From positions 23,594 through 87,593 of the forward strand of contig CAZGIW010000002.1 in assembly GCA_964526285.1 (NCBI GenBank): a stretch of DNA of 64,000 nucleotides. Reading direction: 5' to 3'. The position numbers and the translations under genes are program-made. A model generated the notes under the pieces. That model was not told the DNA's origin, made no database searches, and saw only the letters and a list, made by a program, of their open reading frames with translations. Below are positions 59,303-61,145 of the stretch, piece by piece (position 1 is the first letter of the stretch; every line of letters starts with the position of its first letter). The DNA is from an uncultured Bacteroidales bacterium. GTDB taxonomy: Bacteria; Bacteroidota; Bacteroidia; Bacteroidales; DTU049.

Positions 59303-60019
59303 TTAAAATTTATAAACAGATGGCATTTGCTTGTAATTCACTCCATCTAATAAACTCCCAGCTTTCTTTTTGTTTGTACCCCCCCATTGCTTGAAGAAGA
59401 ACGGGATATCCAATTTCTGACATTTGTCTCTGATTTCAATGACCCATTCTTTTTGCATTGGCCTTGCCCCTGGGCCAGATTCACCACCAACAATTACCCA
59501 ATCAATACCTTTCAGATTGATTTTACTCATTGATGACAGAAGTGGTTCGCAAGACAGGAATTTAATCTTTGCACCTGTGTTTTTTAATAATTCTATTCGA
59601 TCATAATGCTTGTTGTTTTCAACTGTAACACCCATCCAAATATTCTCTGTCCATGTAAATTTATCCGAATGTTTTTCCAGAATATCTGCTCTTTTGGTAA
59701 GTACCTGAAAAACATGTTGCGGATTTTCATTCATTACTTTAAATACTTTATTAATGAAGCTGACAGGTATATCTTTATGGAATAAATCACTCATGGAGTT
59801 TACAAAAGCTATTCTAGGTTTACGCCAAGAGTATGGTTCCTGCAATACTTCATCGTGTAACGTTAATTTGAAACCATTGCAATATTTTTTCTGCCCCATA
59901 GCCTTTAGTCTTTTTGCCATTTTTTCAGCATAGCAGTGTAAACACCCATCAGATATTTTTGTACACCCTGTTGAAGGATTCCATGAAACCTCAGTCCATT
60001 CTATTTTAGTTTGTGCCAT
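59303..60019 (-). CDS. DUF5131 (phage Gp37/Gp68 family) three-Cys-motif protein
   Basis: [34 protein letters not shown] is the hallmark N-terminus (Cx6CxxC). Also [21 protein letters not shown] and FFFKQWG. Confidence 0.75.
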   Translation of the reverse strand: [238 protein letters not shown]

Positions 60020-61145
60020 TTGTTTGTTTTAAGTATAATATCGAATCGTCATTCAGTTTTCCAGTATTTTTCACATCTATAAATGAAATTTTATTATTAT
60101 CGTATAATTCTTTGACAGCCTTTTTAAAATCAGATTCCTTAAACTTCATGAAGTCTGATATTATTATTTTGTGCCAAATTCTAATTCTTGACAACTTTTC
60201 TGATTCAATTATTTCAAGTATTTTCTGTTTCAAATCACTATAATAATTTGGAGGAAGAGATAGATCCATGTAATCATCTTCAAACAATGTTTGTTTGTAG
60301 TTGCAATTCCATATATGCTTATAATAAGCATCGAACATAATGTTGTTGAGTAAAACGACCGTATCAATGTGTCTTGAAGCAAAAATCAGAAAATATTTCA
60401 GGACTGAGCCAGGGCCTCTTTCATAAACAGGACAATATCCTACATATTCAATATCTTTTTGCAGAAGGCTTTTATATTCATTTATTGCTCCAAAAATCTG
60501 CTGATCGCATGAAAGTCTTTCATTAAAAAGATATTTTTTCCAGTAATCTCCCCCCAGAGATTCAGATAGAGAATGATGTTTGCCTCGGATTTGCGGAGTA
60601 TCTTTTTCATATTGTGATTTGGCAGATAGCCTGTGTATTGCACTCACATTAATATTTAACAAGAGTTCAGTACTGAATCTTTTATCCCTTTTTAGGTACG
60701 GAAGAATATCAGCGTAATTAAATCCAGATATACCAAATTGATCAAGATATACAAAAACTGTCTGATCATCAATAATATCAAATATTCTTTTCAGAGCTTC
60801 TTCGGCTGTAGAATTTAAAGTAATTGCAACACCCTGATCAATGCAGTTCTTTAAGTGATTTGTAAGAATTTCATGGTGTTCAGGGTCTTTATTCACAAGA
60901 AATGCTTTATACCTGAAAGGAACATTTTCTTCTGCAATATCACAAATAAAAATAGGAGACCCTTCTGAATTATCATCAAAAACACCAGGGCCAGCAAAAC
61001 CGTCAATAATTAAAATGTTTTTGTTGAGAAATTTTACTTTTTTTAAGTAAGGTGGCAAATAATGTTTTAATATTTGGTCTTTCAATAATGACCAAGGCCT
61101 TTTGCCAAGGAAGAAATCATCTTTGCCTGAACAATTATTTACCAT
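60006..61145 (-). CDS. tcmP: three-Cys-motif partner protein TcmP-like
   Basis: WSLLKDQILKHYLPPYLKK...IIDGFAGPG matches my memory of TIGR04474. Overlaps the DUF5131 gene by 14 nt. Confidence 0.65.
   Translation of the reverse strand: MVNNCSGKDDFFLGKRPWSLLKDQILKHYLPPYLKKVKFLNKNILIIDGFAGPGVFDDNSEGSPIFICDIAEENVPFRYKAFLVNKDPEHHEILTNHLKNCIDQGVAITLNSTAEEALKRIFDIIDDQTVFVYLDQFGISGFNYADILPYLKRDKRFSTELLLNINVSAIHRLSAKSQYEKDTPQIRGKHHSLSESLGGDYWKKYLFNERLSCDQQIFGAINEYKSLLQKDIEYVGYCPVYERGPGSVLKYFLIFASRHIDTVVLLNNIMFDAYYKHIWNCNYKQTLFEDDYMDLSLPPNYYSDLKQKILEIIESEKLSRIRIWHKIIISDFMKFKESDFKKAVKELYDNNKISFIDVKNTGKLNDDSILYLKQTNGTN

Follow-up and report, generated by a model that had tools for sequence, protein, structure and literature searches.

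The 64,000-nucleotide (nt) stretch of DNA analysed here, hereafter the window, comes from an uncultured Bacteroidales bacterium (GenBank assembly GCA_964526285.1, contig CAZGIW010000002.1, positions 23,594 to 87,593) and carries at its right end six tightly packed minus-strand genes: hsdM and hsdS of a type I restriction-modification (R-M) system, tcmP, a DUF5131 gene, and open reading frames (ORFs) of 108 and 224 amino acids (aa). The subject of this report is the tcmP-DUF5131 pair. tcmP (start at 61145) follows hsdS (end at 61148) after 2 nt (TAA CT ATG) and overlaps the DUF5131 gene by 14 nt (60006-60019); downstream spacings are 10 nt from DUF5131 to a zinc-ribbon gene and 9 nt from the latter to an HExxH gene. 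The overlap and the 2-nt gap after the hsdS stop on the same strand had been read correctly in an earlier note made from the sequence alone, and all of its other sequence details, including the quoted ORFs and the stretches WSLLKDQILKHYLPPYLKK and IIDGFAGPG in the 379-aa ORF, are found in the window. Because the junctions measure 2, -14, 10 and 9 nt and a terminator-like site occurs only after the last gene, we treat hsdM to the HExxH gene as one transcription unit. The features concerned are as follows:

60006-61145, minus strand: tcmP, 379 aa; TIGR04474; predicted class I S-adenosylmethionine (SAM) methyltransferase fold and C-terminal winged helix
59303-60019, minus strand: DUF5131 gene (phage Gp37-Gp68 three-Cys protein), 238 aa; PF07505; predicted radical-SAM-superfamily-like partial TIM barrel
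61148-62347, minus strand: hsdS, type I specificity subunit, 399 aa; Methylase_S in two stretches, PADLOC Specificity_I at E 1.5e-65
62337-63821, minus strand: hsdM, type I N6-adenine DNA methyltransferase, 494 aa; HsdM_N and N6_Mtase, PADLOC MTase_I at 557 bits
63825-64000, minus strand: 3' end of an ORF running off the window, read from its translation; stop just before the hsdM ATG
58966-59292, minus strand: 108-aa zinc-ribbon-like protein (CxxC...CxxC); weak Zn_ribbon_8 match
58282-58956, minus strand: 224-aa protein with an HExxH (HEICH) metallopeptidase-like motif; last gene of the operon
58238-58256, minus strand: terminator-like GC hairpin and T-run, 26 nt past the last gene; likely operon end
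56014-57876, plus strand: GmrSD-like (DUF262) type IV restriction candidate, 620 aa; GmrSD_N at E 8e-24, PADLOC HEC-06/Orf5 at E ~1e-20

Terminator-like sites are in total no commoner than in shuffled sequence, and the one at 58238-58256 is suggestive by position only. A sigma-70 promoter scan, with a model ill-suited to Bacteroidota-type promoters, performed no better than on shuffled sequence, and an Rfam search of 55-64 kb found no RNA family.

Family assignment and predicted folds

Both family assignments made in the earlier note hold. The DUF5131 protein gives a full-length match to PF07505 (330.6 bits against a gathering score of 28.9; protein residues 3-233, model positions 1-243), and TcmP matches TIGR04474 over residues 17-270 of 379 with 93.3 bits against a curated cut-off of 53; at such margins over the respective cut-offs neither match can be put down to chance. 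DUF5131 also matches phrog_2045 (307 bits), which PHROGs labels as unknown function.

Among 35 DUF5131 homologues, C19, C26 and C29 (Cx6Cx2C) and C200 are invariant, and the Cys of the SCEPL motif is common, not invariant. The AlphaFold2 model (predicted local distance difference test score, pLDDT, 82) is a partial TIM barrel whose best natural Foldseek matches are spore photoproduct lyase (SPL; query template-modelling (TM) score 0.51-0.52) and NifB, with E values of 5e-3 to 1.5e-2. RadicalSAM.org (SFLD) holds the DUF5131 subgroup as megacluster 5-2, beside SPL at 5-3. In addition, alternative TcmP partners with a Cx3Cx3C motif, described below, align to DUF5131 with an hhalign probability of 89% and themselves score above the Pfam Radical_SAM threshold. 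A direct profile link between DUF5131 and SPL was dropped (hhalign 0.7%), and the connection rests on structure, on this intermediate family and on the RadicalSAM.org class. These three lines support the radical-like nature that the earlier note had suggested, and it is fold and intermediates, not the canonical signature, that support a place for DUF5131 in the radical-SAM superfamily.

The resemblance to SPL (SplB; PF20903; PDB 4fhc, 4fhf and 4fhg) lies in the radical-SAM partial TIM barrel, and SPL-family domains replace DUF5131 beside or within some TcmPs. However, DUF5131 is ~100 residues shorter than SPL, has Cx6Cx2C in place of Cx3Cx2C and lacks a Pfam SPL match; the likeness is structural and gives no sign of thymine dimer repair. 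A second relative is TIGR04471, 'radical SAM mobile pair protein A', which matches DUF5131 at E 1e-28, with 100 bits that fall far below its 355-bit cut-off. Protein A encoded on Bacteroides and Parabacteroides plasmids is 31% identical to DUF5131, and the TIGR04471/TIGR04470 pair of Bacteroides plasmids is likewise a mobile two-gene unit with a homologue of DUF5131 as its protein A. Its partner, going by the NCBIfam name 'radical SAM mobile pair protein B', is presumably not TcmP.

The AlphaFold2 model of TcmP (pLDDT 91) gave 322 Foldseek matches to PDB entries at E<=1e-3, and nearly all of the best 50 are class I SAM methyltransferases. The top match is Escherichia coli RlmJ, the 23S rRNA m6A2030 methyltransferase (E 3.5e-7, target TM 0.53-0.57), Trm1, the tRNA m2,2G26 methyltransferase, follows at E 1.2e-6, and structural matches in BFVD are generic methyltransferases. 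Across 190 diverse TcmP family members, K22, D48, G52, G54, D135, E160, R172 and W202 are kept in 177-189 sequences. Motif I reads DxFAGxG (DGFAGPG in the window), with D48, G52 and G54 kept in 177-184/190; strand 2 ends in N or E; and K22, in the N-terminal helix, and G62-S63-P64 are conserved. The FxGxG that the earlier note had likened to SAM-methyltransferase motif I is genuine, being set in a Rossmann fold by both alignment and model. A motif-IV-like consensus DPFG falls at 135-136 (D in 189/190 and P in 180/190), where the window TcmP and its nearest relatives have DQFG, Q136 replacing P. Motif I with a D-P-aromatic motif IV is typical of methyltransferases acting on exocyclic amines, and the motif set of the TcmP family would correspond to the signature of such exocyclic-amino methyltransferases. 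The C-terminal ~80 residues of the model form a winged helix (weak GMT-wHTH match at 301-357), and a shorter TcmP class of ~280-300 aa exists.

Searches of PDB sequences gave no relevant chain for either protein or for the TcmP profile, and no sequence homology of TcmP to a characterised methyltransferase family was detectable, the only hit being Cons_hypoth95 at E 0.056 in 2/34 members. With RlmJ and Trm1, TcmP shares the class I Rossmann fold, an added helical region and an N-terminal helix with a conserved Lys, the RlmJ motif details being reportedly those described by Punekar and colleagues in 2013. Unlike them, it has an extra winged helix, a three-Cys radical-SAM partner in every case, coding on mobile elements and, in the window, DQFG; no sequence similarity to them is detectable.

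Catalogue status and literature

The pair is not undescribed, as the earlier note had supposed, and corresponds to the PADLOC-DB candidates PDC-M30/M41 (Payne et al. 2024). DUF5131 matches PDC-M30B at 398 bits (E 2.4e-120) and PDC-M41B at 394 bits, and TcmP gives weak, partial matches (residues 24-181) to PDC-M30A (E 5.4e-12) and PDC-M41A (E 2e-7); the PDC-M30 call is made here on the basis that adjacent genes match both component hidden Markov models. The two-gene architecture is the same and the catalogued systems are likewise found embedded in R-M-type systems, whereas the window TcmP is a divergent, Bacteroidota-type member relative to the PDC-M30/M41 models. PDC-M30 and PDC-M41 were named as guilt-by-embedding candidates nested in BREX, DISARM and R-M loci (Payne, Hughes, Fineran and Jackson 2024, bioRxiv 10.1101/2024.01.29.577857), and supplementary table 8 of that work gives CAS_00125 (FAM_02577>>FAM_00989, count 104) as PDC-M30 and CAS_00149 (FAM_02405>>FAM_00989, count 75) as PDC-M41. 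The two cassettes share FAM_00989, so that a single DUF5131 family has partners from two TcmP families. Later papers regard PDCs as unvalidated candidates, and PDC-M30 is predicted in 32/100 Pseudomonas aeruginosa strains of one panel. In agreement with the earlier note, no published activity for the pair was found in literature outside subscription journals.

Partner exchange and fusion

Conservation of the pairing was followed from both sides, in 80 loci seeded with DUF5131, from different species of many phyla and including a Methanoregula archaeon, and in 40 loci seeded with TcmP. Of the 80 DUF5131 loci, 65 contain a TcmP gene, which almost without exception immediately precedes DUF5131 on the same strand at a spacing of -4 to +10 nt. 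This bears out the recurrent pairing stated in the earlier note; at least one apparently TcmP-less locus contains a frameshifted TcmP. DUF5131 adjoins TcmP in most of the TcmP-seeded loci; in eight, a different radical-SAM partner or a fusion takes its place.

Fusion of TcmP to a canonical CxxxCxxC domain of the SPL family, at the C-terminal end, was seen in five species-level genomes, one each from Omnitrophota, Aerophobetes and Sumerlaeota and two from Zixiibacteriota, all four being candidate phyla (L099:7974-10145, L104:6700-8874, L105:2298-4457, L109:2360-4021 and L112:7845-10157). These fusions are ~720-770 aa long (L109 is cut by a contig end), contain GCP(F/Y)DC(S/A)WCY and match Pfam SPL at ~E 1e-16; a metagenome protein, P0163, is the same fusion and forms a singleton cluster. 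In L124, a separate SPL-family gene (E 1e-25) overlaps the TcmP stop. The partners in L130, L131 and L133 are proteins of 253-260 aa with Cx3Cx3C that match PF04055 at 36.6-46.1 bits against a threshold of 29.5 and DUF5131 weakly. Three types of three-Cys partner, together with recurrent fusion, are strong comparative evidence that TcmP would work physically with a radical-SAM enzyme and that the Cys triad would be its cluster ligand set.

We note that three of these alternative pairs lie directly downstream of defence-type genes: a Schlafen-like helicase (L130:6331-7983), a reverse transcriptase (RT)-trypsin-like protease fusion (L131:5775-7430) and a DEAD-box helicase (L124:5335-7917).

Relationship to the type I restriction-modification system

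The syntenic locus L089 encodes DUF5131 at 94%, HsdM at 93%, TcmP at 91%, the HExxH protein at 87%, the zinc-ribbon protein at 82% and the GmrSD-like protein at 77% identity to the window, and HsdS at only 31% (window 61148-62347 against L089:7700-8872), which suggests a swap of the specificity subunit with hsdM, tcmP and DUF5131 nearly unchanged. L089 reads large serine recombinase, hsdR, 108-aa ORF, hsdM, hsdS, tcmP, DUF5131, 108-aa zinc-ribbon gene, HExxH gene, convergent GmrSD-like gene and birA-like/rsfS/ftsH, the last of which flank the island in the window as well. In the window, hsdM and hsdS are present and hsdR is not; because the syntenic L089 has hsdR upstream, comparison of the two loci indicates that the window operon very probably belongs to a complete type I system, the hsdR of which would lie just past the edge. 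hsdR is also present on the P0002 and P0013 contigs. In L089 and on the P0002 contig it is followed by an ORF of 108/124 aa and then hsdM, and the ORF at 63825-64000 is probably the small ORF found between hsdR and hsdM in these relatives; it has no obvious similarity to that of L089.

The description of the pair as built into the type I operon goes too far: in this lineage it follows hsdS, so that hsdR-orf-hsdM-hsdS comes before it and two further genes come after it. Other placements occur. The P0002 contig reads hsdR, orf, hsdM, hsdS, tcmP, DUF5131; L090 reads hsdR, tcmP, DUF5131, hsdS, fic, hsdM; and on the Leptospira plasmid p74 a type ISP enzyme is followed by tcmP and DUF5131. The Fic-domain gene of L090 (11384-12532) is thus embedded between hsdS and hsdM of a type I operon that carries the pair.

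hsdM lies within 10 kb in only 5-6/80 DUF5131-seeded loci, and hsdM or hsdS lies near the pair in 2/40 TcmP-seeded loci. If type I systems occur at their usual frequency of around one per few Mb, this would be roughly ten-fold above the expectation for a random stretch of 15-20 kb. The association is nonetheless not obligate, most copies of the pair being without nearby type I R-M genes. The earlier note had also suggested that the pair might be an effector using the R-M specificity machinery; this finds no support, in view of those copies and of the contrast between HsdS (31%) and TcmP (91%) or DUF5131 (94%) in L089, and dependence on HsdS specificity was rejected on the HsdS-TcmP difference. 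The pair shares with PrrC/RloC-type effectors the habit of lying within or at the end of hsdR/M/S operons; unlike them, it lacks an anticodon-nuclease or ATPase domain, is found for the most part away from R-M genes and shows no co-variation with HsdS.

Unequal conservation of the two proteins

In 57 loci with intact adjacent pairs, the median identity among DUF5131 proteins is 62% (5th-95th percentile 56-72%), a figure with a floor under it because the loci were picked by DUF5131 similarity. The adjoining TcmPs of the same loci have a median identity of 29%, a third of TcmP pairs are unalignable over half their length, and the two sets of identities correlate at 0.21. A TcmP profile search returned 9123 clusters at 50% identity. 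With a hypervariable TcmP joined to a conserved, presumably catalytic partner, the fast evolution of TcmP suggests that it may be the specificity or sensing subunit.

Distribution, mobility and genomic neighbourhood

DUF5131 has at least 8000 matches among representatives of clusters at 90% identity, and 441 plasmids, including 163 conjugative ones, encode it. The pair occurs on Hymenobacter, Pseudomonas and Streptomyces plasmids, between integrases, beside insertion sequence (IS) elements, and as stand-alone copies in housekeeping surroundings, where its two genes converge or come in reversed order. DUF5131 is also present in 178 phage records, most of them Mycobacterium and Gordonia phages, at 30-45% identity, and in 5/5 phages inspected it is a solo gene without TcmP, in early, replication or recombination regions. 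These solo copies may work with another partner or serve another role. Among phages, the TcmP-paired subfamily (53% identity) is restricted to a few that infect Gordonia. One of these, Jablanski (L082, 5983-7852), has a paired-type DUF5131 beside RelBE in the interval between integrase and immunity repressor, together with a TcmP homologue (annotated 'methyltransferase') convergent to it; this interval is the usual site of prophage-expressed defence genes.

Such regions of many actinophages, and also of the archaeal virus PhiCh1, hold divergent solo DUF5131 genes (early, replication or recombination regions; L083-L088); L083 is the Mycobacterium prophage prophiT36-2a, in which a DNA methyltransferase gene lies two genes upstream of DUF5131. 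Some phage records call the homologue 'spore photoproduct lyase' or, as an unsupported label, 'RNA methyltransferase'.

Immediate neighbours of the pair, taken as the nearest flanking gene on each side of the 80 loci, are heterogeneous, with 174 Pfam families in 146 proteins, and a fixed third gene was rejected on this count. Small recurrences involve radical-SAM, AP-endonuclease-fold, ResIII, Ada/MGMT, TIR, AbiEii-like, S24 and hsdS proteins, giving the neighbourhood a mixed defence and repair flavour. In Sinorhizobium meliloti, TcmP has been assigned to one putative transcription unit with hna, a validated defence gene.

Within a few kb of the pair in L026, L059, L061 and L066 there are umuD/umuC-like, LigT-like 2'-5' RNA ligase, RNase-H-like and second radical-SAM genes. 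These four loci belong to Chitinophagaceae/Bacteroidota, and the recurrences may reflect shared synteny of related genomes rather than independent association.

Proposed function and alternatives

The reading that we favour, with roughly even confidence, is that the pair forms an autonomous, horizontally mobile two-enzyme SAM-using cassette of the PDC-M30 type, the members of which would act jointly on a nucleic-acid base. In this scheme TcmP, with its RlmJ/Trm1-like Rossmann fold, would bind SAM and the target and, given its fast evolution, could supply specificity or sensing; DUF5131 would bind a [4Fe-4S] cluster through its invariant Cx6Cx2C and carry out radical chemistry on the nucleotide presented by TcmP. 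The role would most likely be anti-phage defence, defence against mobile genetic elements (MGEs), or self-marking. A second nucleic-acid chemistry, with a radical enzyme and a transferase, had been one of the two proposals of the earlier note, and it fits the predicted folds. Autonomy and mobility are supported by the stand-alone and integrase-flanked copies, the Gordonia prophage module and the exchange of HsdS with TcmP conserved. The defence flavour comes from three gene orders with R-M genes, the type ISP neighbour, TIR, AbiEii-like, ResIII, Schlafen-like and RT-protease neighbours, the hna unit and the PDC-M30/M41 listing. In the window, the cassette would share a transcript with the type I R-M genes, within a defence island of low GC content, apparently without depending on HsdMS, as a typical and apparently intact member of a catalogued candidate system.

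Several observations weigh against this reading. The structural E values of DUF5131 to SPL are weak (5e-3), the window DUF5131 has no Pfam Radical_SAM (PF04055) match at E<=0.01 and a non-canonical Cys spacing (Cx6Cx2C, not Cx3Cx2C), and comparison of DUF5131 with the fused SPL-like domains by hhalign gave no significant match (probability 0.7%). With Q136, methyl transfer by the window TcmP may be altered, and the closest structural relatives of TcmP methylate RNA rather than DNA. Defence genes are seldom as strongly conserved as DUF5131, and, because neighbours are very heterogeneous and include DNA-repair-type genes, a defence role is not established. Searches of literature outside subscription journals yielded no biochemical or phenotypic data for any member of either family.

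One other explanation is damage reversal. If DUF5131 reversed a lesion or a hostile modification recognised by TcmP, to the benefit of host or mobile element and not to restrict invaders, then SPL as the closest characterised fold, the SPL-family domains that replace DUF5131 in some pairs, the recurrent UmuD/UmuC, Ada/MGMT, AP-endonuclease-fold, LigT and second radical-SAM neighbours, the solo DUF5131 in replication or recombination regions of many actinophages, and a conservation of DUF5131 resembling that of a repair enzyme would all be accounted for. Yet several of the repair-type neighbours belong to the related Chitinophagaceae/Bacteroidota loci and do not count as independent cases, the pair occurs patchily and in association with mobile elements, copies are embedded in R-M systems, and the hypervariability of TcmP would be more readily expected of an arms race or a specificity role than of a protein that recognises a fixed lesion; we regard repair as unlikely. 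An RNA-directed abortive infection, in which modification of tRNA or rRNA would shut down translation with an outcome like that of R-M-embedded anticodon nucleases, agrees with RlmJ (rRNA m6A) and Trm1 (tRNA m2,2G) as the best structural matches of TcmP, and a universally conserved RNA target would explain why DUF5131 keeps 62% identity between phyla, an archaeal copy included. The 'RNA methyltransferase' naming in some phage records would agree too, but is an unsupported label; the Foldseek matches reflect the general amino-methyltransferase fold (TM ~0.4-0.57) and not substrate, and the winged helix and the DNA-acting SPL relative point to DNA, which leaves this explanation distinctly improbable.

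A PrrC-like guard or effector, held inactive by HsdMS/HsdR or using their specificity and firing when a phage anti-restriction factor disables the complex, is in line with co-transcription with hsdMS in the window, with the pair lying between hsdR and hsdS in L090 and after hsdS in L089 and on the P0002 contig, with the type ISP enzyme adjoining it on Leptospira p74, and with its discovery through embedding in R-M, BREX or DISARM systems. We consider such a guard very unlikely: hsdM/hsdS are nearby in only 5-6/80 DUF5131-seeded and 2/40 TcmP-seeded loci, housekeeping regions, plasmids and a prophage harbour stand-alone copies, HsdS is 31% but TcmP 91% identical between the window and L089, and the pair has no nuclease or toxin domain. 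Similarly little weight is given to a selfish-element function, in which the pair would modify the DNA of its element or of the host so that restriction is evaded, or would serve for addiction, the link to defence arising only from shared mobile islands. The 441 plasmids (163 conjugative) and 178 phage records with DUF5131, the copies beside integrases and IS elements and the copy beside RelBE in a prophage lysogeny region speak for it, whereas copies inside R-M operons and among chromosomal housekeeping genes and the lack of a toxin-like domain speak against it; its chemistry would be shared with the two-enzyme cassette favoured above, from which it differs only in the beneficiary.

A broader form of the favoured reading is possible, though we hold it tentatively: TcmP with a three-Cys radical-SAM partner (DUF5131, SPL-like or fused) might constitute a new, widespread class of two-component SAM-radical enzyme that installs or removes an undescribed base modification, with hypervariable TcmP setting the target and DUF5131 supplying the radical chemistry, for immune or self-marking use in bacteria, archaea, plasmids and prophages. 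If true, this would be a new nucleic-acid modification or defence chemistry. The folds and the TcmP-SPL-like fusions give a concrete hypothesis, in which a methyltransferase-like specificity subunit would present a base for SAM-dependent radical chemistry. It is the family as a whole, abundant but uncharacterised and unusual in its enzymes, that makes the case interesting.

Other features of the island

GC content is 0.30-0.33 over 54-62 kb and 0.35-0.40 in the rest of the window; together with the serine recombinase of L089, the low GC fits a horizontally acquired island inserted near birA-like/rsfS/ftsH. The zinc-ribbon and HExxH genes (58282-59292) are kept in L001 and L089 and absent from other TcmP loci, and the 224-aa HExxH protein has only very weak matches, to YgjP-like (E 0.01) and HEC-02B (E 6e-4). 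The convergent GmrSD-like gene encodes a putative modification-dependent type IV restriction enzyme and lies beside a putative modification cassette.

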